64,000 nucleotides of DNA from Escherichia coli (GCF_003334405.1 NZ_QOWM01000001.1); one strand, 5' to 3'; numbered from the stretch's first letter, positions 20,780-60,654 are shown. Notes: generated by a model not told the origin, from the sequence alone. Translations and numbers: made by a program.

Positions 20780-20885
<106 letters not shown>

Positions 20886-40943: not shown

Positions 40944-41019
<76 letters not shown>

Positions 41020-44956: not shown

Positions 44957-44970
44957 TTTGGTATAGCATG

Positions 44971-44992
44971 AAACATAGCAAAGGCTATGTTT
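44971..44992 (+). promoter_or_regulatory. MntR operator palindrome upstream of mntH
   Basis: Perfect inverted repeat AAACATAGC-aaag-GCTATGTTT about 15 bp upstream of the mntH start codon. Confidence 0.7.
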
Positions 44993-44995
44993 TAG

Positions 44996-46243
<1,248 letters not shown>

Positions 46244-48284: not shown

Positions 48285-49250
48285 ATGACAAAGTATGCAT
48301 TAGTCGGTGATGTGGGCGGCACCAACGCACGTCTTGCTCTGTGTGATATTGCCAGTGGTGAAATCTCGCAGGCTAAGACCTATTCAGGGCTTGATTACCC
48401 CAGCCTCGAAGCGGTCATTCGCGTTTATCTTGAAGAACATAAGGTCGAGGTGAAAGACGGCTGTATTGCCATCGCTTGCCCAATTACCGGTGACTGGGTG
48501 GCGATGACCAACCATACCTGGGCGTTCTCAATTGCCGAAATGAAAAAGAATCTCGGTTTTAGCCATCTGGAAATTATTAACGATTTTACCGCTGTATCGA
48601 TGGCGATCCCGATGCTGAAAAAAGAGCATCTGATTCAGTTTGGTGGCGCAGAACCGGTCGAAGGTAAGCCTATTGCGGTTTACGGTGCCGGAACGGGGCT
48701 TGGGGTTGCGCATCTGGTCCATGTCGATAAGCGTTGGGTAAGCTTGCCAGGCGAAGGCGGTCACGTTGATTTTGCGCCGAATAGTGAAGAAGAGGCCATT
48801 ATCCTCGAAATATTGCGTGCGGAAATTGGTCATGTTTCGGCGGAGCGCGTGCTTTCTGGCCCTGGGCTGGTGAATTTGTATCGCGCAATTGTGAAAGCTG
48901 ACAACCGCCTGCCAGAAAATCTCAAGCCAAAAGATATTACCGAACGCGCGCTGGCTGACAGCTGCACCGATTGCCGCCGCGCATTGTCGCTGTTTTGCGT
49001 CATTATGGGCCGTTTTGGCGGCAATCTGGCGCTCAATCTCGGGACATTTGGCGGCGTGTTTATTGCGGGCGGTATCGTGCCGCGCTTCCTTGAGTTCTTC
49101 AAAGCCTCCGGTTTCCGTGCCGCATTTGAAGATAAAGGGCGCTTTAAAGAATATGTCCATGATATTCCGGTGTATCTCATCGTCCATGACAATCCGGGCC
49201 TTCTCGGTTCCGGTGCACATTTACGCCAGACCTTAGGTCACATTCTGTAA
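48285..49250 (+). CDS. glk: glucokinase (321 aa)
   Basis: N-terminal ATP-binding motif ([12 protein letters not shown]); 321 aa. Confidence 0.97.
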
Positions 49251-49264
49251 ATCCTTCCTTTTAT

Positions 49265-49295
49265 ATCGGGAGGTAACTCTCCCGATAATCTTTTA
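49265..49295 (+). terminator. putative intrinsic terminator after glk
   Basis: Hairpin atcgggag-gtaact-ctcccgat followed by a T-rich tract. Confidence 0.55.
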
Positions 49296-49468
49296 AATCA
49301 TACAGTTTATTCAATTTTTCTTTGTGTCCCCTCACAAGGTCGACCTGCGTCACACTTCCGTACAGCGGGATTAATTCTCCAGTAAATGCATTATTTGTCT
49401 GGTAACGGCGATTTGTTTTGCACGTTCATAATTTCACTCGTCAACTATCACTGAACGAGGAATTAACG

Positions 49469-49795
49469 ATGAGTAAGAAACTGATTGCCTTATGTGCCTG
49501 CCCGATGGGCCTGGCTCACACCTTTATGGCCGCTCAGGCGCTGGAAGAAGCGGCGGTAGAAGCCGGTTATGAAGTGAAAATTGAAACCCAGGGCGCGGAC
49601 GGTATCCAGAATCGCCTGACGGCGCAGGATATCGCCGAAGCGACCATCATCATCCACTCCGTGGCAGTTACCCCGGAAGATAACGAACGTTTCGAATCAC
49701 GCGACGTTTATGAAATCACTTTGCAGGACGCAATTAAAAACGCTGCGGGCATCATCAAAGAAATCGAAGAGATGATTGCCTCTGAACAACAGTAA
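49469..49795 (+). CDS. fryB: PTS fructose-like EIIB component (108 aa)
   Basis: ATG at 49469 (MSKKLIALCACPMG) with the EIIB phospho-cysteine motif; the track ORF is extended upstream to 49418. Confidence 0.9.
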   Translation: MSKKLIALCACPMGLAHTFMAAQALEEAAVEAGYEVKIETQGADGIQNRLTAQDIAEATIIIHSVAVTPEDNERFESRDVYEITLQDAIKNAAGIIKEIEEMIASEQQ

Positions 49796-49816
49796 TATTC
49801 GACAGGGATAATTGTT

Positions 49817-51064
49817 ATGGCCATTAAAAAACGCAGTGCAACCGTTGTGCCTGGCGCATCCGGTGCGGCAGCGGCAGTTAAGAATCCGCAGGCCTCTAAA
49901 ACCAGCTTCTGGGGTGAACTCCCGCAGCATGTGATGTCAGGGATTTCACGCATGGTGCCGACCTTAATTATGGGCGGTGTGATCCTCGCTTTCAGCCAGC
50001 TGATTGCTTATAGCTGGCTTAAAATTCCTGCTGAGATCGGCATCATGGATGCTCTTAATAGCGGGAAATTCTCCGGTTTCGACCTCTCCTTACTTAAATT
50101 TGCCTGGCTGTCGCAGTCCTTCGGCGGCGTGTTGTTTGGTTTTGCCATTCCGATGTTTGCTGCTTTTGTGGCGAACTCTATCGGTGGCAAACTGGCGTTC
50201 CCGGCTGGTTTTATCGGCGGGTTGATGTCTACCCAGCCGACGCAACTGCTGAACTTCGATCCCAGCACTATGCAATGGGCGACCTCTTCGCCGGTGCCGT
50301 CCACCTTCATTGGTGCGCTGATTATTTCTATCGTTGCCGGTTACCTTGTGAAGTGGATGAACCAGAAAATCCAGTTACCGGATTTCCTGTTAGCGTTCAA
50401 AACCACATTTTTGCTCCCGATTCTTTCCGCCATTTTTGTCATGCTGGCGATGTACTACGTCATCACCCCCTTTGGTGGCTGGATCAACGGCGGTATCCGT
50501 ACTGTGCTGACTGCCGCAGGTGAGAAGGGCGCGCTGATGTACGCAATGGGGATCGCCGCGGCGACAGCAATCGACCTTGGTGGCCCGATCAACAAAGCCG
50601 CAGGTTTTGTTGCCTTCAGCTTTACCACTGACCACGTATTACCGGTCACCGCTCGTTCTATCGCTATCGTTATTCCGCCGATTGGTCTGGGGCTGGCGAC
50701 CATTATCGACCGTCGTTTAACCGGCAAACGCCTGTTCAACGCTCAACTTTATCCGCAGGGTAAGACCGCCATGTTCCTGGCGTTTATGGGGATCAGTGAG
50801 GGTGCGATTCCGTTTGCGCTGGAAAGCCCCATCACCGCCATTCCGTCGTATATGGTCGGCGCTATTGTCGGCTCAACCGCCGCTGTCTGGCTGGGCGCAG
50901 TGCAATGGTTCCCGGAGTCCGCTATCTGGGCATGGCCGCTGGTCACTAACCTGGGCGTCTATATGGCGGGGATCGCGCTGGGGGCAGTCATAACTGCGCT
51001 GATGGTGGTGTTCCTGCGTCTGATGATGTTCCGTAAAGGCAAATTGTTAATCGATAGCCTGTAA
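49817..51064 (+). CDS. fryC: PTS fructose-like EIIC component (415 aa)
   Basis: Polytopic EIIC-type permease. Confidence 0.92.
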
Positions 51065-51078
51065 GAAGGAAAATCCAG

Positions 51079-52164
51079 ATGACATTACTCGCTTCGCTGC
51101 GCGACTGGCTTAAGGCGCAACAACTGGATGCAGTGCTTCTCTCCTCACGGCAGAACAAACAGCCGCATCTGGGGATCTCCACCGGATCAGGTTATGTGGT
51201 GATTAGCCGTGAAAGTGCGCACATTCTGGTGGATTCGCGCTATTACGTTGAGGTGGAAGCCCGTGCGCAAGGCTACCAGCTGCATTTGCTTGACGCGACG
51301 AACACGCTTACCACTATCGTCAATCAAATCATTGCCGATGAACAGTTGCAAACGCTCGGTTTTGAGGGCCAGCAGGTGAGTTGGGAAACCGCGCACCGCT
51401 GGCAGTCTGAACTCAATGCGAAACTGGTTAGCGCCACGCCGGATGTGCTGCGGCAAATCAAAACGCCAGAGGAGGTGGAGAAAATCCGCCTCGCCTGTGG
51501 GATTGCTGATCGCGGTGCAGAGCATATTCGCCGCTTTATTCAGGCGGGGATGAGCGAGCGCGAGATAGCCGCTGAACTGGAGTGGTTTATGCGCCAGCAG
51601 GGCGCAGAAAAAGCCTCTTTTGACACCATTGTCGCCAGTGGCTGGCGTGGGGCGCTGCCGCACGGCAAAGCCAGCGACAAGATTGTTGCAGCGGGCGAGT
51701 TTGTCACTCTCGATTTCGGTGCGCTGTATCAGGGCTACTGCTCTGATATGACGCGCACCTTGCTGGTGAATGGCGAAGGGGTGAGCGCCGAATCTCACCC
51801 GCTGTTTAACGTCTATCAAATTGTCCTGCAGGCACAGCTCGCAGCAATCTCCGCGATTCGCCCCGGCGTGCGCTGCCAGCAGGTTGACGATGCCGCGCGC
51901 CGGGTCATTACAGAAGCAGGTTATGGCGACTATTTCGGTCATAACACCGGTCACGCTATCGGCATTGAAGTTCATGAAGATCCGCGTTTTTCACCGCGGG
52001 ACACCACGACGCTACAGCCAGGCATGTTACTGACCGTGGAGCCGGGGATTTATTTGCCAGGGCAAGGGGGCGTGCGCATCGAAGATGTTGTGCTGGTTAC
52101 CCCGCAAGGCGCAGAAGTGCTCTACGCCATGCCGAAAACAGTGTTGCTCACGGGAGAGGCATAA
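51079..52164 (+). CDS. ypdF: M24-family Xaa-Pro aminopeptidase (361 aa)
   Basis: Creatinase/prolidase fold with the metal-ligand histidine context ([13 protein letters not shown]). Confidence 0.9.
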
Positions 52165-53201
52165 TGGATTTATCGCTATTAAAAGCGTTGAGCGAGGCAG
52201 ATGCGATCGCCTCCTCGGAACAGGAAGTGCGGCAGATCCTGCTGGAAGAAGCGGATCGCCTGCAAAAAGAAGTGCGATTTGATGGTCTGGGATCGGTGCT
52301 GATCCGCCTGAATGAATCGACAGGTCCGAAGGTGATGATCTGTGCGCATATGGACGAAGTGGGATTTATGGTGCGCAGCATCTCCCGCGAAGGGGCGATT
52401 GATGTGCTGCCGGTTGGCAACGTACGCATGGCTGCCCGCCAGCTGCAGCCGGTGCGCATCACCACCCGTGAAGAGTGCAAAATTCCAGGCCTGCTTGACG
52501 GCGACCGGCAGGGGAATGACGTCAGCGCCATGCGCGTGGACATTGGTGCGCGCTCCTATGACGAAGTGATGCAGGCGGGAATTCGTCCCGGCGATCGCGT
52601 CACGTTTGATACCACTTTTCAGGTTCTCCCTCACCAGCGAGTGATGGGGAAAGCCTTTGATGACCGCCTCGGTTGCTATCTGCTGGTGACGTTACTGCGC
52701 GAACTGCACGACGCCGAACTACCTGCGGAAGTGTGGCTGGTGGCAAGTTCCAGCGAAGAGGTGGGATTACGCGGCGGGCAAACTGCCACCCGCGCGGTGT
52801 CGCCGGACGTCGCCATTGTGCTTGATACCGCCTGCTGGGCGAAAAACTTTGATTATGGCGCGGCTAACCATCGCCAGATTGGTAACGGGCCGATGCTGGT
52901 GTTAAGCGACAAGTCGCTGATTGCGCCGCCAAAACTTACCGCCTGGGTCGAAACCGTGGCGGCAGAAATTGGCGTGCCGTTGCAGGCAGATATGTTCAGC
53001 AACGGCGGCACGGACGGCGGGGCGGTGCACTTAACCGGCACCGGCGTGCCCACAGTGGTGATGGGGCCAGCAACCCGCCATGGACATTGCGCCGCATCGA
53101 TTGCCGATTGCCGCGACATTTTGCAGATGCAGCAACTTTTATCTGCCCTTATTCAACGTCTTACGCGTGAGACGGTTGTTCAACTGACGGATTTCAGATG
53201 A
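52164..53201 (+). CDS. ypdE: M42-family aminopeptidase (345 aa)
   Basis: FrvX/M42 peptidase-like sequence; start overlaps the ypdF stop. Confidence 0.9.
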
Positions 53202-53225
53202 TCTCCTGATTAACCCGGAGCGGTT

Positions 53226-55721
53226 ATGTTAACGATTCAATTTCTCTGTCCTTTGCCTAACGGTCTACATGCTCGTCCGGCGTGGGAACTTAAAGAACAG
53301 TGCAGCCAGTGGCAAAGCGAAATCACTTTTATTAACCATCGCCAGAACGCAAAGGCAGATGCGAAAAGCTCGCTGGCGCTGATTGGCACCGGCACCCTAT
53401 TTAATGACAGTTGCAGCCTGAACATTAGCGGCAGCGATGAAGAGCAGGCGCGGCGCGTGCTGGAAGAGTACATCCAGGTGCGCTTTATCGACAGCGACAG
53501 CGTTCAGCCTACGCAGGCAGAACTGACGGCGCATCCGCTGCCGCGTTCATTAAGCCGCCTTAACCCGGATTTACTGTACGGCAATGTGCTGGCAAGCGGC
53601 GTCGGCGTGGGTACGCTGACCCTGTTACAAAGCGACAGCCTCGACAGTTATCGGGCAATCCCCGCCAGTGCGCAAGATTCCACCCGGCTGGAGCACAGCC
53701 TGGCAACGCTTGCCGAGCAACTGAACCAGCAATTGCGTGAGCGTGACGGCGAAAGCAAAACTATCCTCAGCGCCCATTTGTCGCTGATTCAGGATGATGA
53801 ATTTGCAGGCAATATCCGTCGCCTGATGACAGAACAGCATCAGGGGCTGGGGGCGGCGATCATCAGCAATATGGAGCAGGTTTGCGCCAAACTTTCTGCC
53901 TCTGCCAGCGATTATCTGCGCGAACGTGTTAGCGACATTCGCGATATCAGCGAACAGTTGCTGCATATCACCTGGCCGGAACTGAAGCCGCGCAACAAGC
54001 TGGTGCTTGAAAAACCGACCATTCTGGTGGCTGAAGATTTAACCCCAAGCCAGTTTTTGAGCCTTGATTTGAAAAATCTTGCGGGCATGATTCTGGAGAA
54101 AACCGGGCGCACCTCGCATACACTGATTCTGGCCCGTGCCTCGGCGATCCCGGTACTGAGTGGCTTGCCGCTGGATGCGATTGCCCGTTATGCCGGGCAA
54201 CCTGCAGTGCTTGACGCCCAGTGCGGCGTGCTGGCGATTAACCCGAATGACGCGGTGAGCGGTTATTATCAGGTCGCGCAGACGCTGGCGGATAAACGCC
54301 AAAAACAACAGGCGCAGGCTGCCGCGCAGCTGGCCTATTCCCGTGATAACAAGCGTATTGATATTGCGGCGAATATCGGCACCGCTCTGGAAGCGCCAGG
54401 CGCGTTTGCCAACGGCGCGGAAGGTGTCGGGCTGTTCCGTACCGAAATGCTCTATATGGATCGCGACAGCGCGCCGGACGAGCAGGAGCAATTTGAAGCC
54501 TACCAGCAGGTGCTACTGGCGGCGGGCGACAAGCCGATTATCTTCCGCACGATGGACATCGGCGGCGATAAAAGCATTCCTTATCTGAATATTCCCCAGG
54601 AAGAGAACCCGTTCCTCGGCTATCGCGCGGTACGTATTTACCCGGAATTTGCTGGCCTGTTCCGCACTCAACTGCGGGCCATTTTGCGCGCCGCCAGTTT
54701 CGGCAACGCCCAGTTGATGATCCCGATGGTTCACAGCCTCGATCAGATCTTATGGGTGAAAGGCGAGATCCAAAAAGCGATCGTTGAGCTTAAGCGCGAT
54801 GGCCTGCGTCATGCAGAGACGATTACGCTTGGGATCATGGTGGAAGTTCCGTCGGTGTGCTACATCATCGACCACTTCTGCGATGAGGTCGATTTCTTCA
54901 GTATCGGCTCCAACGATATGACCCAGTATCTGTATGCGGTCGATCGTAATAACCCGCGCGTATCGCCGCTATATAACCCGATTACGCCATCGTTCCTGCG
55001 CATGTTGCAGCAAATAGTTACCACTGCGCATCAGCGGGGCAAATGGGTAGGCATTTGCGGTGAACTGGGCGGTGAAAGCCGTTATCTGCCGCTACTGCTT
55101 GGGCTGGGCCTGGATGAGCTGAGTATGAGTAGCCCGCGTATTCCGGCGGTGAAAAGCCAGCTTCGTCAACTGGATAGCGAGGCGTGTCGGGAACTGGCGC
55201 GTCAGGCATGTGAATGCCGCAGTGCGCAGGAAATTGAAGCGTTACTCACCGCCTTTACGCCGGAAGAAGACGTTCGCCCACTGCTGGCGCTGGAGAATAT
55301 CTTTGTTGATCAGGATTTTAGCAATAAAGAGCAGGCGATCCAGTTCCTGTGCGGCAACCTCGGCGTTAACGGGCGCACTGAACATCCGTTTGAGCTGGAA
55401 GAAGATGTCTGGCAGCGGGAAGAGATTGTTACCACCGGCGTTGGTTTTGGCGTAGCGATCCCGCACACCAAATCTCAGTGGATCCGTCATTCCAGTATCA
55501 GCATTGCCCGGCTGGCGAAACCGATTGGCTGGCAGTCAGAAATGGGCGAAGTCGAACTGGTGATCATGCTGACGCTGGGTGCTAACGAAGGGATGAATCA
55601 TGTGAAAGTCTTCTCGCAGCTGGCGCGTAAACTGGTGAATAAAAACTTCCGCCAGTCGTTGTTTGCCGCGCAAGATGCACAAAGTATCCTGACGCTGCTG
55701 GAAACAGAATTAACCTTCTGA
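53226..55721 (+). CDS. fryA: multidomain PTS protein FryA (HPr-like, Enzyme I-like and EIIA-like domains; 831 aa)
   Basis: N-terminal HPr-like His motif (GLHARPA), central PEP-utilising enzyme domain, C-terminal EIIA-Fru-like domain. Confidence 0.92.
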   Translation: MLTIQFLCPLPNGLHARPAWELKEQCSQWQSEITFINHRQNAKADAKSSLALIGTGTLFNDSCSLNISGSDEEQARRVLEEYIQVRFIDSDSVQPTQAELTAHPLPRSLSRLNPDLLYGNVLASGVGVGTLTLLQSDSLDSYRAIPASAQDSTRLEHSLATLAEQLNQQLRERDGESKTILSAHLSLIQDDEFAGNIRRLMTEQHQGLGAAIISNMEQVCAKLSASASDYLRERVSDIRDISEQLLHITWPELKPRNKLVLEKPTILVAEDLTPSQFLSLDLKNLAGMILEKTGRTSHTLILARASAIPVLSGLPLDAIARYAGQPAVLDAQCGVLAINPNDAVSGYYQVAQTLADKRQKQQAQAAAQLAYSRDNKRIDIAANIGTALEAPGAFANGAEGVGLFRTEMLYMDRDSAPDEQEQFEAYQQVLLAAGDKPIIFRTMDIGGDKSIPYLNIPQEENPFLGYRAVRIYPEFAGLFRTQLRAILRAASFGNAQLMIPMVHSLDQILWVKGEIQKAIVELKRDGLRHAETITLGIMVEVPSVCYIIDHFCDEVDFFSIGSNDMTQYLYAVDRNNPRVSPLYNPITPSFLRMLQQIVTTAHQRGKWVGICGELGGESRYLPLLLGLGLDELSMSSPRIPAVKSQLRQLDSEACRELARQACECRSAQEIEALLTAFTPEEDVRPLLALENIFVDQDFSNKEQAIQFLCGNLGVNGRTEHPFELEEDVWQREEIVTTGVGFGVAIPHTKSQWIRHSSISIARLAKPIGWQSEMGEVELVIMLTLGANEGMNHVKVFSQLARKLVNKNFRQSLFAAQDAQSILTLLETELTF

Positions 55722-55723
55722 CG

Positions 55724-56581
55724 TTAGCCCTGAAAACGGGCGCTGTACTCTCCCGGCGTCAGACCAAACTGACGCCGGAAAACGCGACAAAAATAGTCGC
55801 TATCCGGAAAACCGCAACGCTGTGCCACTTCATGAATTGACAGATGATATTTCTGCAAAATCATCCTCGCCTTCGCCATTCGCACCCAACGCACATACTC
55901 GATAAAACGCATCGTTCCATGCTGAGCAAACAGTTTTGACAGATGATTGGGCGTGATATTAAAAAACTGCGCCACGCTCTCGCGGGTGAGCGGCTGGGCA
56001 TAATTATCCTGAACCCAGTTACAAATGCTGTGATAGAGAAAATCGCCGCGCGGCTGCGAATTGCCCGGCGGCATATTCACCACGCTACGGCAAAGATGCA
56101 GCAAACTTAACACCAGCGGCTGAATGATATTTTGCTCCAGCGGCGAACGGCTAAGATGGGTGAGGGCGGTAAGCATCGCTTCACCTTCACCGCGTTGCAG
56201 GCTGGGAAGCTGGATCTGGCGAGCAGGATGCAACAACGACGTGGTGCGGCTATCGTAAAACGATAACCCAAGCCAGGTCGGAGCGAACACCAGGCTTAAC
56301 AGCATCACCGGTTTGTTGTTGACCGGTAAATTAGCCGCGCGCGCCGGAATAAACAGCATTTCTCCTTCCACCAAACGTTGCTGCTTTGCTTCCAGCAGAT
56401 TGCCGTATTCGCCGCGCAGCACGATATCCAGACGGGGAAAATCAATACATAAACTGCCCACCGGCAACGAGGCAGGCTGGCTGGCAAACCAGACGCGCCC
56501 CAGTAGTTGCGGGTTAAGCACCAGGCCGCTGAACAGATCGGCGAAAAATTGTTGATCGGCGGGCAAGCCTGGTGCTTTCAT
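55724..56581 (-). CDS. ypdC: AraC-family transcriptional regulator YpdC (285 aa)
   Basis: C-terminal AraC-type HTH; downstream of ypdAB on the same strand. Confidence 0.88.
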   Translation of the reverse strand: MKAPGLPADQQFFADLFSGLVLNPQLLGRVWFASQPASLPVGSLCIDFPRLDIVLRGEYGNLLEAKQQRLVEGEMLFIPARAANLPVNNKPVMLLSLVFAPTWLGLSFYDSRTTSLLHPARQIQLPSLQRGEGEAMLTALTHLSRSPLEQNIIQPLVLSLLHLCRSVVNMPPGNSQPRGDFLYHSICNWVQDNYAQPLTRESVAQFFNITPNHLSKLFAQHGTMRFIEYVRWVRMAKARMILQKYHLSIHEVAQRCGFPDSDYFCRVFRRQFGLTPGEYSARFQG

Positions 56582-56593
56582 GAAAGTTCCCGA

Positions 56594-57328
56594 TTAAAGA
56601 TGCATTAACTGGCGAAATTCTTTCACTTTGCTGCGGCTGACCGGCACTTCAAAATCCAGATCTTTCAGTCGCAGAATGTAGGTGTTATTAAACCACGGTT
56701 CGATTTCGCGTATTTTGTTCAGATTGACACAAAATGAGCGATGGCAGCGGAAAAAATGCGACGGCGGCAGTTTGCTGCAAAATTCGGTAATGTTCATCGG
56801 CATTACGTAGGATTCACGCCGCGTATAGACAAAGGTCATTTTCTCGTGCGCTTCGGCGTAATAGATATCGTTAATTGGCGTGACGATTATTCGCTCATCT
56901 TTCACCAGATTAATGGTGTCATTCTCACGCGTTACCGTCGCGGCAGGCGTACTGCTGGTCTGCTGTTGTTGCCAGGCCGCTTCCAGTTTTTGCAGCATCC
57001 CGGTAATACGTGACTCCTGATACGGTTTGAGAATGTAGTCAAACGCCTCCAGTTCAAACGCTTCTACCGCATGTTCTTTCCACGCGGTGATGAACACAAT
57101 AAACGGTTTATGGGCGAACTGGCTGATGTTTTGCGCCAGCAATACGCCATCCAGCGACGGAATATTGATATCCAGAAAAATGGCGTCGACGCGGTTATGC
57201 TGCAAAAACTTCAACACGTCCAGACCGTCGTCAAAGGTGCCGACAATCTCCATCTGGCTGTGCTCTTTAATTAGCCAGCTCAGTTCCTGTTGTGCCAGGA
57301 ATTCGTCTTCAACAATGATGACTTTCAC
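56594..57328 (-). CDS. ypdB: LytTR-family response regulator YpdB (244 aa)
   Basis: REC domain plus LytTR DNA-binding domain; GTG start at 57328 with GGAG 7 nt upstream; the track uses TTG at 57346. Confidence 0.88.
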   Translation of the reverse strand: MKVIIVEDEFLAQQELSWLIKEHSQMEIVGTFDDGLDVLKFLQHNRVDAIFLDINIPSLDGVLLAQNISQFAHKPFIVFITAWKEHAVEAFELEAFDYILKPYQESRITGMLQKLEAAWQQQQTSSTPAATVTRENDTINLVKDERIIVTPINDIYYAEAHEKMTFVYTRRESYVMPMNITEFCSKLPPSHFFRCHRSFCVNLNKIREIEPWFNNTYILRLKDLDFEVPVSRSKVKEFRQLMHL

Positions 57329-57342
57329 AATATCACTCCGGC

Positions 57343-59040
57343 TCAAAGCAATAACGTAGCCTGTGAGGCGACTGGGGTGCGTTGGTTAGGAATGTAAAAC
57401 GCAATTTCCGTCCCCGGCTCCAGGCGGCGGATATGCAGCCCCTCGCCATACAATAACTTCACGCGATGATGGACATTCAGCAGGCCAATTTTATTGCCCG
57501 GCATTTCATTCGCTTCGACCCGCTCAATCACCTTTGGATCGATGCCGTGCCCGGTATCTCGCACCGCAATGCGTACCCGATTTCCGCACTCTGCAACGCT
57601 GATGGTGACAACGCCTTTACCTTTGCAAGGCTGAATACCGTGGACAATGGCGTTCTCCACCAACGGCTGGATCAGCAGGCTGGGAATGCAGCAATTCACC
57701 TCTTCATCAATATCATAGATAACCGTCAGCTTGTCACCAAAGCGGGCCTGCTCAATGGCAATATAGTCTTTAATTTGATACAGCTCTTTTTTGATATCGA
57801 TTTGCTCATCGTCTTTTAATTCAATGTTATAGCGCAGATAACGCGACAGATTAAAGATCAACTGGCGAGCGGTATCCGGATTCAGACGGATTGACGATGA
57901 AATAGCGTTCAGAGCGTTAAACAGAAAATGGGGATTAATTTTGCTTTGCAGGGCGCGAAGCTCTGCCTTATTTGCCATTTCACGTAGCTGCTCGGCGCGT
58001 GAAACCTCCAGTTGCGTGGAGATGATTTGCGACAGACCGACCGCCATTTCCTGTAATGACGAGGTGATCTGATGCGCGTGGCAGTAGTAAATTTTCAGCG
58101 TTCCGGTCACGACCCCTTTCTCCCACAATGGGATCACCAGCATGGAATGAATCTCTGGTGTGCGGTGGGCTTCATCATTGTTTTTAATGATGATTTTTCC
58201 GTAATTCATCGCCTGACGGGTAGTCGGGCTAATGAAGTCATCGCCATTCTGATAGTTATGTTCACCCACGCCAACATAGGCCAGCACATGATCGGTATTA
58301 GTAATCGCCACCGCATCGGCGTGAATGTCATCGCGGATAATTTCGCAGACCTTGCGTAATGACTCGCTATTGACATGGCGAAACAGCGGTAGCGTTTTGT
58401 TGGCGATATCCAGCGCCAGCTTGGCCTGCCGCGCGGCGCTGGCCTCTTTTTCGCCCTCAACGCTTTGCACCAGAAGCACAATAAAGCCGATACAGACGCT
58501 ACCGAGGATCATTGGAATGCCGATTTTAGAGACGATATCGATCCCCAACGCGGTAGTTGGTGCCCAGACAATTACCAGAATCATGGTCAACGTCTCACAC
58601 AACATGCCGCCGAGAATACCGACGCGCCAGCGCTGTGCTTTGGGGATTTTCAGGTTGATCCAGCCCGATATACAACCCGCCAGAATGCTGGTGATAAAGC
58701 AGGGGATCGCCGTCACGCCGCCGATATCAATTAAATACCGGTGAATACCCGCAATCACGCCGGTAATGATGCCTACCCACGGGCCAAACAGAATCCCGCC
58801 GGACATCACCGCGATAATACGTACGTTCACCAGCGAGCCTTCTACGGGAACGCCGGACCAGGTGCTGAACAGGGCGAACAGCGAGAAAATGGCGGTAACG
58901 GCGAGCAATTCTTTTGGGGAGTGCGCCGACTTGTGCAACAGTTCGCGAAACAGGCGGATACGGATGAGAAAGAACAGGCAGATAAGCATTAACGCTGCCC
59001 GATCGAAGACCGCCAGCAGCATGTTGAATATTTCGTGCAC
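57343..59040 (-). CDS. ypdA: LytS-type sensor histidine kinase YpdA (565 aa)
   Basis: N-terminal multi-TM 5TM-Lyt domain, GAF-like segment, His-kinase H-box region ([13 protein letters not shown]) and ATPase domain. Confidence 0.92.
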
Positions 59041-59415: not shown

Positions 59416-60654
59416 ATGGCTGACACTCGCCCTGAACGTCGCTTTACGCGCATTGATCGTCTCCCGCCCTACGTTTTTAACATCACCGCTGAACTGAAAA
59501 TGGCTGCGCGTCGGCGCGGCGAAGATATTATCGATTTCAGCATGGGTAACCCGGACGGTGCGACTCCGCCGCATATCGTCGAAAAATTATGTACTGTGGC
59601 CCAGCGCCCGGACACGCATGGTTACTCCACTTCACGCGGCATTCCGCGGTTACGTCGCGCCATTTCCCGCTGGTATCAGGATCGCTACGACGTTGAAATC
59701 GACCCGGAATCAGAAGCCATCGTCACTATTGGTTCGAAAGAGGGCCTGGCGCATCTGATGCTGGCGACGCTGGATCATGGTGACACGGTGCTGGTGCCGA
59801 ATCCAAGTTACCCGATCCATATTTATGGCGCGGTGATTGCCGGGGCGCAGGTACGCTCAGTGCCGCTGGTGGAAGGTGTCGATTTCTTCAACGAACTGGA
59901 GCGAGCCATTCGTGAAAGTTATCCGAAACCGAAGATGATGATCCTCGGCTTCCCGTCAAACCCAACCGCGCAATGCGTGGAACTGGAGTTCTTCGAAAAA
60001 GTAGTGGCGCTGGCGAAACGCTACGATGTGCTGGTGGTCCATGACCTGGCCTATGCCGATATCGTCTACGATGGCTGGAAAGCGCCGTCAATTATGCAGG
60101 TACCGGGTGCACGCGATGTGGCAGTCGAGTTCTTTACGCTGTCGAAAAGCTACAACATGGCGGGCTGGCGTATCGGCTTTATGGTTGGCAACAAAACGCT
60201 GGTCAGCGCCCTGGCTCGTATTAAAAGCTATCACGATTACGGCACCTTTACGCCGTTGCAGGTGGCGGCGATTGCGGCGCTGGAGGGCGATCAACAGTGC
60301 GTGCGCGACATTGCCGAACAGTACAAACGCCGCCGTGATGTATTGGTTAAAGGGCTGCATGAAGCGGGCTGGATGGTTGAAATGCCGAAGGCTTCGATGT
60401 ATGTCTGGGCGAAAATCCCGGAACCATATGCGGCCATGGGATCGCTGGAATTTGCCAAGAAGCTCCTTAACGAAGCGAAGGTTTGTGTCTCGCCGGGGAT
60501 TGGCTTTGGCGACTATGGTGATACGCATGTTCGCTTTGCACTGATTGAAAACCGCGACCGTATTCGTCAGGCCATCAGAGGGATTAAAGCGATGTTCCGT
60601 GCCGACGGTTTACTACCCGCCAGCAGCAAACATATTCACGAAAACGCGGAATAA
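59416..60654 (+). CDS. alaC: class I PLP aminotransferase, glutamate-pyruvate aminotransferase AlaC (412 aa)
   Basis: Aminotransferase fold with the PLP-lysine motif ([12 protein letters not shown]). Confidence 0.93.

Follow-up and report, generated by a model that had tools for sequence, protein, structure and literature searches.

The fry locus of Escherichia coli raises the question of why a fructose-like sugar PTS should be encoded together with two aminopeptidases, and which of the neighboring regulators controls it. The window analyzed here was a 64,000-nucleotide stretch of E. coli DNA (NZ_QOWM01000001.1), the relevant features of which are listed in Table 1. The fryBC-ypdFE-fryA operon is a locus already annotated, and the core locus is carried by 5415 of 5426 complete E. 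coli genomes. ORFs and RefSeq annotation place all eight genes where the initial annotation had put them, with ypdA, ypdB, and ypdC next to fry on the opposite strand, and its domain calls were confirmed with NCBIfam models, among which the kinase-domain matches of YpdA were weak.

Table 1. Genes and putative promoter elements of the fry-ypdABC region (window coordinates)
Feature	Position	Strand	Remarks
glk terminator-like hairpin	49264..49287	+	TATCGGGAGGTAACTCTCCCGATA then T-rich tail; sets glk apart from fry promoter
CRP-like 16-mer	49339..49354	+	GTCGACCTGCGTCACA; 7/10 to TGTGA-N6-TCACA; centre about -92.5 from inferred start
Direct repeat 1	49370..49386	+	ATTAATTCTCCAGTAAA; phylogenetic footprint; candidate distal YpdC half-site
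Direct repeat 2	49390..49406	+	ATTATTTGTCTGGTAAC; 12/17 identical to repeat 1; abuts -35 position
-10 hexamer	49427..49432	+	CATAAT; conserved in at least 90% of 22-sequence alignment
fryB	49469-49795	+	PTS EIIB, Fru family; Cys11 within ACPMGLAHT motif
fryC	49817-51064	+	PTS EIIC, Fru family; 415 aa
ypdF	51079-52164	+	Small M24B aminopeptidase P/prolidase-type enzyme
ypdE	52164-53201	+	M42 (TET-type) aminopeptidase
fryA	53226-55721	+	HPr-Enzyme I-EIIA-Fru fusion; PGAP label 'ptsP'
ypdC	55724-56581	-	AraC-family regulator; RhaR-like across residues 47-281
ypdB	56594-57328	-	LytTR response regulator
ypdA	57343-59040	-	LytS-type kinase

As for the PTS proteins, FryB matched TIGR00829 at 92 bits (NCBIfam cut-off, 76.85), with Cys11 as the active-site cysteine. 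FryC scored 157.0 bits against TIGR01427, just under the NCBIfam cut-off of 157.55; Pfam PF02378 is recorded for its orthologues, and its predicted membership of the Fru family is clear. FryA matched TIGR01417 (506 bits) and TIGR00848 (138 bits), and its phospho-acceptors are H15 of HPr (GLHARP), H298 of EI (GRTSHT), and H747 of EIIA (GVAIPH). YpdF and YpdE matched their NCBIfam equivalog models NF007310 and NF007421 at 819 and 681 bits, respectively. The solved structure of YpdF (PDB 5CNX) has the pita-bread fold and five ligands of M24B, and alignment to Pyrococcus furiosus prolidase (1PV9), with the ligand numbering that we take to be correct, found D212, D223, H292, E321, and E335 intact. 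YpdE, whose Shigella orthologue has been solved (PDB 1YLO), retains the co-catalytic metal ligands and the catalytic Glu of M42 (H62, D166/D167, E198-E199, D221, and H308) upon alignment to PhTET2 (1Y0R), for which the ligand numbering is likewise our assumption. Metal ligands and phospho-sites are all present in the fry-operon proteins, and the genes are under purifying selection (dN/dS of 0.02 to 0.17 against four species).

The five fry genes had been described as one tightly packed unit with two embedded metallo-aminopeptidases, and this held: their junctions measure 21, 14, -1, and 24 bp, the third being a TAATG overlap in which the ypdE start and the ypdF stop share 1 nt. Terminator-like sites are not in excess (11 found versus 14.4 expected), gene order is identical in about 25 enterobacterial loci, and the genes form one transcription unit in the list of PMC2731931, with all of which a predicted single transcript from fryB to fryA is consistent. 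The fry and ypdABC genes converge, their stop codons separated by 2 bp, and so have no common promoter region.

From glk's own terminator-like hairpin upstream, the fry promoter was deduced to lie within 49290-49468, inside the interval proposed initially (49250-49470), with a predicted transcription start near 49439. The -10 hexamer differs by one base in Kluyvera and Serratia sp. H1w. A CRP-like site was found from the alignment of upstream regions; in the 17 of 22 regions in which it and the -10 box could both be placed, it lies a fixed 88 nt upstream of that box, the E. coli copy (150->238) being placed by this offset; it agrees with the consensus at 7 of 10 positions, versus 9 of 10 in Serratia sp. 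H1w and in L082. Downstream of the CRP-like site lie 17-bp direct repeats with a 20-bp period, conserved across genera with unrelated upstream genes. Of the 11 loci scanned for their loose core motif ATNANTTNTCNNGTAA (at most 1 mismatch), 9 have it, with nearly all matches at the fry promoter; the exceptions are one additional match just downstream in locus L008 and one elsewhere in L009. Tandem half-sites about 21 bp apart that reach -35, beside an AraC-family gene, characterize AraC-type activator promoters, and such an arrangement is present here. The layout has the same inferred geometry as araBAD (CRP at about -93.5, AraC I1-I2 repeats to -35), with two 17-bp repeats 20 bp apart that end at -35, a CRP-like site farther out at about -92.5, and a weak -35; binding at these sites is predicted, and the repeats differ in sequence from araI. 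Because there is no good -35, the promoter is probably activator dependent.

The initial annotation had linked fry to ypdABC as a whole, and this link gained support for ypdC and none for the LytS/LytTR pair. Of 24 enterobacterial loci, 21 have ypdC next to fry, and ypdAB is missing from 12 of these; ypdC is not adjacent in the loci of Kluyvera, C. amalonaticus, and Citrobacter sp. MGH106. Several of the loci with an adjacent ypdC occupy another chromosomal site (rna/ahpF). In Cronobacter, Phytobacter, and Enterobacter vonholyi, ypdAB sits in the alaC-glk interval with neither fry nor ypdC. Since the two sets each occur apart, the adjacency of fry and ypdAB in E. coli is a juxtaposition, and ypdAB is a neighboring, separable module outside the fry cassette. 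The fry-ypdC block also shares a raised G+C (0.53 to 0.58, versus 0.49 to 0.50 for ypdAB and glk), and an AraC gene (45% identical) lies upstream of the cassette in L082. NCBIfam models identified an AraC-type HTH in YpdC, no Pfam family matched its ligand-binding domain, and YpdB was a LytR/BtsR-like response regulator. The LytS-type call for YpdA came from its RefSeq name and the Pfam domains of orthologues 88 to 92% identical (5TM-5TMR_LYT, His_kinase, and HATPase_c). YpdC is the likely regulator of fry, rather than the pyruvate sensor YpdA/YpdB, and would bind at the direct repeats.

That YpdA/YpdB controls fry, with fry and ypdABC as one functional unit, is very unlikely. The genes do lie side by side in Escherichia and in the Citrobacter freundii complex, ypdABC is listed as one unit (PMC2731931), and ypdC, 12 bp past ypdB in E. 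coli, is probably co-transcribed with ypdAB, so that pyruvate signalling could modulate YpdC levels indirectly. Against this, besides the separate occurrence of the two modules, stand the operator data and the target studied for this pyruvate-responsive two-component system, which is yhjX (PMC5552118, PMC4847170). The YpdB operator is a direct repeat, GGCATTTCAT-N11-GGCATTTCAT (PMC4847170), and a scan of 49250-49468 for it was empty even at 2 mismatches, contrary to the earlier suggestion that YpdB might act at the fry promoter; single copies of the motif gave 66 matches in the whole window versus 86 expected by chance.

The combination of PTS and peptidases is not confined to enterobacteria. 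A PTS IIB-IIC pair with an M24 peptidase gene next in line is also found in Firmicutes, namely in Enterocloster, Lacrimispora, Staphylococcus equorum, Solobacterium, Clostridium, and Tissierellia. The M24 gene directly follows IIC, each time amid different flanking genes, in all of the non-enterobacterial contexts inspected (Clostridium L027 and L094, L082/L083, L084-086, Enterocloster L087, Lacrimispora L088, S. equorum L089, Solobacterium L090, and Tissierellia L095). In seven contexts an M42 enzyme is the second peptidase; in two its place is taken by a PepV-like M20, a non-orthologous replacement. E. coli fry has the same core, in which M24 comes directly after IIB-IIC and is itself followed by another peptidase of the MH clan. 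A PatB-family C-S beta-lyase is present in every Firmicute locus extending beyond the peptidases and in 8 of 8 complete non-enterobacterial cassettes; all eight PLP enzymes tested scored above the PatB cut-off of TIGR04350 (344 to 367 bits versus 340), and their closest solved relatives are PatB and cysteine-S-conjugate beta-lyases. No such lyase was found in the E. coli fry operon or in any enterobacterial locus examined, and the nearby alaC product is merely 21 to 24% identical to the cassette lyases. The Firmicute cassettes use general EI/HPr and have a PRD-type regulator, and their PRD/EIIA regulators weakly match the FrvR model NF007366. Because the PTS-peptidase pairing is conserved across phyla, it is not a matter of chance, and the fry operon is the enterobacterial version of a self-contained, conserved mobile cassette found across phyla.

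What such a cassette may handle was approached through comparable systems. In line with the initial annotation, none of the papers found in the literature search names a substrate for the fry system. FryB, FryC, and the IIA domain of FryA match the model of MngA, also a Fru-family permease, below its cut-off. MngA transports 2-O-alpha-mannosyl-D-glycerate, a glycoside of a small acid, so the Fru family can accept conjugated sugars; its partner MngB differs in being a glycoside hydrolase, with no peptidases and no lyase there. E. coli frvABXR and sgcXBCQAER resemble fry in encoding a sugar-PTS permease with an M42 peptidase (the paralogues FrvX and SgcX), and both lack an assigned substrate, as does fry. 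YpdE scored 193 bits against NF007367, presumably the FrvX model. The sgc permease is of the Gat family, and we know of no M24 peptidase, fused HPr-EI-IIA protein, or AraC regulator in either system. The sgc module responds to nitrogen-containing slow-growth substrates (PMC13343008).

The full cassette has a further parallel in E. coli malX-malY, which pairs a PTS permease (EIICB) with a PatB/MalY-family PLP beta-lyase, and the relatives of the cassette lyase with solved structures include MalY (PDB 1D2F); the differences are a Glc-family permease, the lack of peptidases, the additional role of MalY as an anti-MalT regulator, and the lack of a lyase in E. coli fry. In the Cys-Gly-3M3SH thioalcohol pathway of Staphylococcus hominis, a PepV-like M20 dipeptidase followed by a PatB C-S lyase acts on an S-substituted Cys-containing dipeptide, and the S. 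hominis enzyme structures 6QP1/6QP2 are related to the cassette lyase. This substrate has no sugar moiety, its uptake is by a proton-coupled peptide transporter rather than a PTS, and the Clostridium cassette M20 enzymes scored 224 bits against the "Cys-Gly-3M3SH dipeptidase" model, well under the cut-off of 1025. Sugar-amino-acid conjugates are taken up and broken down by frlABCD, fraBDAE, and gfrABCDEF, the last via a PTS; these need SIS-domain deglycases and/or kinases, which fry cassettes do not have, and Gfr is of the Man family.

Taken together, we infer that the locus most likely serves the use of an amino acid or short peptide conjugated to a sugar, under the control of CRP and YpdC. 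Sugar-conjugated peptides are our best guess, to which the PatB beta-lyase of the full cassette lends some support. The composite reading, a single catabolic operon with its own promoter, serving as a cassette for such conjugates, activated by YpdC and CRP, and unrelated to YpdAB, has in our judgment an even chance of being right. Phosphate from PEP would pass through FryA's own HPr, EI, and IIA domains to FryB, and FryC would import and phosphorylate a sugar or polyol bearing an amino acid or short peptide, the peptide part of which YpdE and YpdF would trim in the cytoplasm. Where the cassette is complete, its beta-lyase would then split the sugar phosphate off a Cys- or Ser-type residue. Entry of the sugar phosphate into central metabolism would be the reason that no sugar-catabolic enzyme is encoded. 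As at araBAD, transcription would be activated by YpdC at the 17-bp direct repeat beside -35, with CRP assisting from about -92.5. Because aminopeptidases need a free alpha-amine, the possible conjugates are constrained. In E. coli, whose cassette is without the beta-lyase, the last step as proposed could operate only if MalY, MetC, or some other enzyme stood in for it, or if the substrate were a different one. Weighing against the composite reading are also the 7/10 match of the E. coli CRP-like site, the three loci without a ypdC beside fry, the ChIP-exo result in which YpdC sites did not appear under the conditions used (PMC8464067), and the reported in vitro activity of YpdE and YpdF on ordinary peptides.

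It is quite unlikely that the substrates are Amadori (fructosamine-type) glycated amino acids or peptides, taken up by the PTS and trimmed by the peptidases in the manner of frl/fra/gfr. The Man-family Gfr PTS for fructoselysine and glucoselysine is a precedent; the Fru-family IIB/IIC/IIA, the amino-acid- and peptide-processing enzymes in the operon, and the gut and urinary habitats of the host species would fit. However, the cassettes examined encode neither an SIS-type deglycase nor a kinase, alpha-glycation blocks the N-terminal amine of a peptide, so that aminopeptidases generally refuse such a peptide, and the C-S beta-lyase would have no obvious role. An ordinary-sugar PTS, or one cryptic or vestigial in E. 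coli, with the peptidases as housekeeping enzymes riding along, is also unlikely. YpdE and YpdF reportedly hydrolyse ordinary peptides in vitro, as Zheng et al. are said to have found in 2005. Laboratory media give no known phenotype or inducer, and ChIP-exo detected no YpdC sites under the conditions tested (PMC8464067). Such a view nevertheless sits poorly with the cross-phylum synteny amid unrelated flanks, the replaced second peptidase beside a constant PatB partner, the strong purifying selection, the near-universal retention in E. coli, and the lowered mouse bladder fitness of a UPEC ypdE deletion (competitive index, 0.30; PMC8767336).

Highly improbable is a regulatory phosphorelay rather than a transporter, in which FryA-FryB phosphorylation controls the peptidases or nitrogen/peptide metabolism, like PTS-Ntr. 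FryA is insulated from the general PTS by its own EI and HPr, and the lack of a sugar-catabolic enzyme would suit a relay too. Yet the full-length membrane protein FryC is 53 to 64% identical to the IICs of Firmicute cassettes, above the 38 to 47% of the enzymes, as expected for a working permease, and the Firmicute cassettes, which rely on the general EI/HPr, have a PRD-type regulator of the kind typical of substrate-inducible sugar PTS operons.

Returning to the pathway for sugar-conjugated amino acids or peptides, its widest implication, which we put forward as possible and rather doubtful, would be a new class of PTS substrates, small glyco-amino acids or glycopeptides that are imported, phosphorylated, and then taken apart in the cell, with two aminopeptidases and a PLP beta-lyase doing the work of a glycosidase, with YpdC as the sensor and a role in urinary-tract and gut fitness of E. 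coli. If so, examples of the substrate could be Cys/Ser-Pro-type pieces of glycoproteins from host, fungus, or plant that carry S- or O-glycosylation, or an aminoacyl-amino-sugar, for instance part of a thiol cofactor.

The gene set and positions proposed in the initial annotation were borne out by the ORF list, the RefSeq annotation, from which positions were likewise taken, and NCBIfam domains, and so were the close gene boundaries within the fry operon, whose intergenic junctions measure 21, 14, −1 (TAATG) and 24 bp. YpdA gave weak kinase-domain matches against NCBIfam, and its LytS-type assignment was made from the RefSeq name and the Pfam domains of 88-92% identical orthologues. As a feature the locus is not novel, being already annotated and partly characterised. 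The window is E. coli chromosomal DNA; its segment 49000-59500 is 100% identical to E. coli C, and among 5426 complete E. coli genomes, 5415 contain a stretch of at least 80% of this query.

Features of the fry locus and its surroundings
Feature	Position	Strand	Assignment or basis
glk	48285-49250	+	
glk hairpin with T-rich tail	49264-49287		terminator scan
CRP-like TCACA-containing 16-mer	49339-49354		conserved block
direct repeat 1, ATTAATTCTCCAGTAAA	49370-49386		imperfect 17-bp repeat, conserved block
direct repeat 2, ATTATTTGTCTGGTAAC	49390-49406		imperfect 17-bp repeat, conserved block
-10 hexamer CATAAT	49427-49432		conserved block; good -35 absent
fryB	49469-49795	+	Fru-family IIB (NCBIfam)
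fryC	49817-51064	+	Fru-family IIC (NCBIfam)
ypdF	51079-52164	+	YpdF equivalog, M24B (NCBIfam)
ypdE	52164-53201	+	YpdE equivalog, M42 (NCBIfam)
fryA	53226-55721	+	fused HPr + Enzyme I + IIA-Fru (NCBIfam)
ypdC	55724-56581	-	AraC-type HTH (NCBIfam)
ypdB	56594-57328	-	LytR/BtsR-like response regulator (NCBIfam)
ypdA	57343-59040	-	LytS-type (RefSeq name, orthologue Pfam domains)
alaC	59416-60654	+	

Homologues of YpdF were then compared, with one genome per species and the best 80 matches taken. These included 25 enterobacterial loci at 66% YpdF identity or more, and the next matches among the 80 came from Firmicutes, at about 45% or lower. The order fryB-fryC-ypdF-ypdE-fryA was kept in all enterobacterial loci long enough to judge. 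Outside Enterobacteriaceae, the closest relatives of YpdF and those of FryC share one arrangement. It reads AraC - IIB - IIC - M24 - M42 - HPr/EI/IIA - PLP enzyme at two loci (L082 and L083), and PRD/EIIA regulator - IIA - IIB - IIC - M24 - M42 - PLP enzyme in Enterocloster, Lacrimispora, Staphylococcus equorum, Solobacterium and the Ruminococcaceae-like metagenome contigs L084-086. A Tissierellia contig carrying the cassette ends within the M42 gene, and two Clostridium species have no M42 gene and carry a PepV-like M20 dipeptidase 5' of the regulator. Across the cassette loci, identity to the E. coli proteins is 62-80% for FryB, 53-73% for FryC and 38-65% for the enzymes. Since the flanks were unrelated in every case outside Enterobacteriaceae, the cassette is self-contained.

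All eight PLP enzymes tested scored above the curated PatB C-S lyase cut-off (344-367 bits versus 340), and the solved structures closest to them are those of PatB, cysteine-S-conjugate beta-lyases, cystalysin and MalY. No glycosidase, deglycase, kinase or aldolase is encoded in any of the cassettes examined. The enterobacterial cassette, in which IIA is fused to its own HPr and EI, has no beta-lyase and is best read as the version that lost it. We considered alaC as the "missing" PLP enzyme and rejected it on two grounds: its identity to the cassette lyases is 21-24%, and it also borders ypdAB in genomes that lack fry. No PTS linkage was seen for the other 55 Firmicute homologues of YpdF among the best 80 (38-45% identity, L028-L081); thus, the cassette cannot be predicted from M24B similarity alone. 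Taken together, these comparisons show a mobile, selectively maintained cassette in which a Fru-family permease is always coupled to an M24B peptidase, together with an M42/M20-type metallopeptidase, ancestrally a PatB beta-lyase and, in Proteobacteria, an AraC-family regulator gene. The PTS-peptidase pairing is ancient, with the beta-lyase as its constant partner outside Enterobacteriaceae.

Several individual loci deviate from this arrangement or carry further genes. In C. amalonaticus (L012 12146-14628), fryA matches as two overlapping tblastn pieces, which suggests a frameshifted gene or pseudogene. In Solobacterium (L090 7467-8951), an ISL3-family transposase lies between the cassette IIB and IIC genes, probably disrupting the operon, and further IS elements flank the cassette. 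Staphylococcus equorum has a second Fru-type PTS cluster about 1.5 kb downstream of the cassette (L089 15101-19245), separated from it by two unrelated genes and consisting of a PRD regulator, IIA, IIB, a 349-aa IIC 29% identical to FryC, and an aldolase. Upstream of the AraC-regulated cassette of L082 (576-6918) is a run of amidohydrolase genes encoding an ectoine-hydrolase-like M24 protein, two hydantoinase/carbamoylase-family M20 amidases, an Ldh_2 dehydrogenase and a glyoxalase.

The encoded proteins were then inspected for integrity. Alignment with P. furiosus prolidase showed the M24 metal ligands of YpdF (D212, D223, H292, E321 and E335) to be intact, and alignment with the P. horikoshii TET peptidase did the same for the M42 ligands of YpdE (H62, D166/D167, E198-E199, D221 and H308). 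Experimental structures exist for YpdF (PDB 5CNX) and the Shigella YpdE orthologue (PDB 1YLO). FryA carries H15, H298 and H747 in canonical HPr, EI and IIA motifs, and FryB has Cys11. In comparisons with E. whittamii, C. youngae, S. arizonae and Superficieibacter, dN/dS was 0.02-0.17 for every gene. By these sequence measures, the genes of the fry locus are functional. Zheng et al. (J Bacteriol 187:3671, 2005) reportedly identified YpdF as an Xaa-Pro/Met aminopeptidase and YpdE as an aminopeptidase of broad specificity. In the mouse bladder, a UPEC ypdE deletion strain loses against its competitor (competitive index 0.30; PMC8767336). Some Escherichia assemblies show a truncated ypdE (L002 11086-12066), and YpdF-YpdE fusions of 464-495 aa with M24 and M42 Pfam domains are predicted (P0002, P0008, P0012, P0015, P0026 and P0057); both presumably represent frameshifts at the TAATG overlap or assembly errors.

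The fryBC ypdF ypdE fryA genes and ypdA ypdB ypdC are listed as transcription units in PMC2731931, whose stress-pathway tables give mild responses for them. The two units are convergent and therefore have no common control region. The stop codons of fryA and ypdC are 2 bp apart (55721-55724) with no terminator between them, and the two transcripts must overlap as antisense in E. coli. The spacing between fryA and ypdC is wider in the C. freundii complex (about 380 bp) and in S. arizonae (about 110 bp). A perfect 10-bp inverted repeat at 55753-55778 (CCGGCGTCAG-N6-CTGACGCCGG), inside the coding 3' end of ypdC and 32 nt beyond the fryA stop, was rejected as a canonical terminator because a T-run is absent on both strands. 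Rfam yielded no RNA element in or near the fry locus; its distant gathering-level matches were two tRNAs with an adjoining RtT element (37934-38244), a third tRNA (40944-41016) and the ES036 (CssrF) sRNA (20807-20849). An 18-codon RefSeq "hypothetical protein" overlapping the mntH start (44968-45024; L001 1969-2025) may be a leader peptide.

We also compared the gene neighbourhoods of the regulators. The ypdC gene lies immediately downstream of fryA, in convergent orientation, in 21 of the 24 enterobacterial loci extending beyond fryA, the exceptions being Kluyvera, C. amalonaticus and Citrobacter sp. MGH106. Nine of these 21 (Escherichia and the C. freundii complex) also have ypdAB, which is missing in the remaining 12, found in S. 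enterica subsp. arizonae and diarizonae, Superficieibacter, several Enterobacter-like species, Pluralibacter and Serratia sp. H1w; in Superficieibacter, fry and ypdC occupy a different chromosomal site, between rna/dcuC and ahpF. At L082, an AraC gene with 45% identity stands upstream of the cassette. Conversely, the order alaC, ypdA, ypdB, glk occurs in Cronobacter sakazakii, Phytobacter ursingii and Enterobacter vonholyi (YpdA 88-92% identity), where neither ypdC nor fry is present at the ypdAB locus. G+C is 0.53-0.58 from fryC through ypdC (50000-56500) and 0.49-0.50 in ypdB/ypdA (56500-59000) and glk; this step matches the module boundaries defined by synteny and suggests separate origins. 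Thus, "ypdABC" of E. coli is a juxtaposition of two independent modules within the glk-alaC interval.

YpdA/YpdB is a pyruvate-responsive system whose characterised target is yhjX and whose operator is a direct repeat of GGCATTTCAT (PMC5552118, PMC4847170). A search of the fry promoter for this operator gave no match. One exact GGCATTTCAT occurs at 57500-57509, inside the ypdA coding sequence, which is chance level; no second copy lies nearby at N11 spacing, and the single-copy count across the window is below chance expectation. Control of fry by YpdAB, a functional tie implied in the initial annotation, is therefore not supported, the operator being absent from the fry promoter and the modules occurring separately, while the tie to YpdC is favoured by synteny. 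The comparison thus singles out YpdC, not YpdAB, as the candidate regulator to study for fry. In E. coli, ypdC starts 12 bp past ypdB and may be co-transcribed with ypdAB, which leaves room for indirect pyruvate input. ChIP-exo detected no YpdC peaks under the tested conditions (PMC8464067).

As glk ends in its own hairpin, the fry promoter is separate and lies within 49290-49468. We aligned 286 nt (280 nt upstream and 6 nt into fryB) from 22 loci, several of which have unrelated upstream genes, and obtained a single conserved block. Its direct repeats are identical at 12 of 17 positions, recur with a 20-bp period and extend to the -35 position. In all 17 sequences in which both were located, the CRP-like 16-mer is found 88 nt upstream of the -10 box, an offset that was itself used to place the E. 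coli site. Agreement of the 16-mer with the CRP consensus is 7/10 positions in E. coli and 9/10 in Serratia sp. H1w and L082. If transcription starts near 49439, the centre of the CRP-like site falls at about -92.5 and the repeats cover about -70 to -33, so that the putative geometry of CRP-like site, repeats and -35 is the same as that of araBAD, and the cassette promoter has the appearance of a CRP- and AraC-dependent one. Of 11 loci scanned (13-22 kb each), 9 carry the core repeat motif at the fry promoter; the only extra matches lie just downstream of the fry promoter in C. youngae and upstream of ypdC in S. arizonae, the second being a half-site with one mismatch. This S. enterica subsp. 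arizonae copy (GTCAGTTATCGCGTAA, minus strand, ~16003 of L009) is located between ypdC and alaC, some 400 bp upstream of ypdC, and is possibly an autoregulatory site or else a chance match. Neither the sigma-70 scan (13 promoter-like sites versus 8.7 expected) nor the terminator scan (11 terminator-like sites versus 14.4 expected) showed enrichment, and of their sites the glk hairpin alone proved informative. A scan promoter at 49260-49289 was rejected in favour of CATAAT, since it overlaps the glk hairpin and is not conserved. A TGTGT-N4-TCACA site at 49324-49337 (8/10 in a naive CRP scan) was also rejected, since it has the wrong spacing and is not conserved beyond Escherichia.

Literature searches turned up no substrate, inducer or regulator for fry, and the view that the locus is an unusual combination without an assigned substrate holds. 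We infer that the substrate consists of a sugar or polyol joined to an amino acid or to a short peptide. FryABC would take up and phosphorylate the conjugate, YpdE and YpdF would trim its peptide part, and the full cassette would free the product through beta-elimination at a Cys- or Ser-type residue, giving a sugar phosphate for which no dedicated enzyme would be required. The constant lyase and the replacement of M42 by a non-orthologous M20 enzyme argue that the enzymes act on the transported molecule. The weak points of this proposal are that the E. coli cassette has no lyase and that aminopeptidases need a free alpha-amine.

Amadori compounds are a rival substrate class, against which stand the lack of an encoded deglycase and the N-terminus, which would be blocked. 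The idea that housekeeping peptidases merely hitchhike on a cryptic sugar PTS conflicts with the synteny, with the purifying selection and with the bladder phenotype, and a purely regulatory phosphorelay is contradicted by the high conservation of IIC.

To our knowledge, the "fructose-like" systems fry, frv, frw and sgc are among the few E. coli K-12 transport operons without a substrate, and the recurrent pairing of a PTS permease with an M42 peptidase has never been explained. The sgc module, which includes the M42 paralogue SgcX and whose substrate is unassigned as for fry, is induced on nitrogen-containing slow-growth substrates (PMC13343008). The cassette is common in human gut Firmicutes; given this and the bladder defect of the UPEC ypdE mutant, the substrate is probably host- or diet-derived and of some ecological relevance. 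The comparative results make the question of fry function directly testable by concrete experiments.
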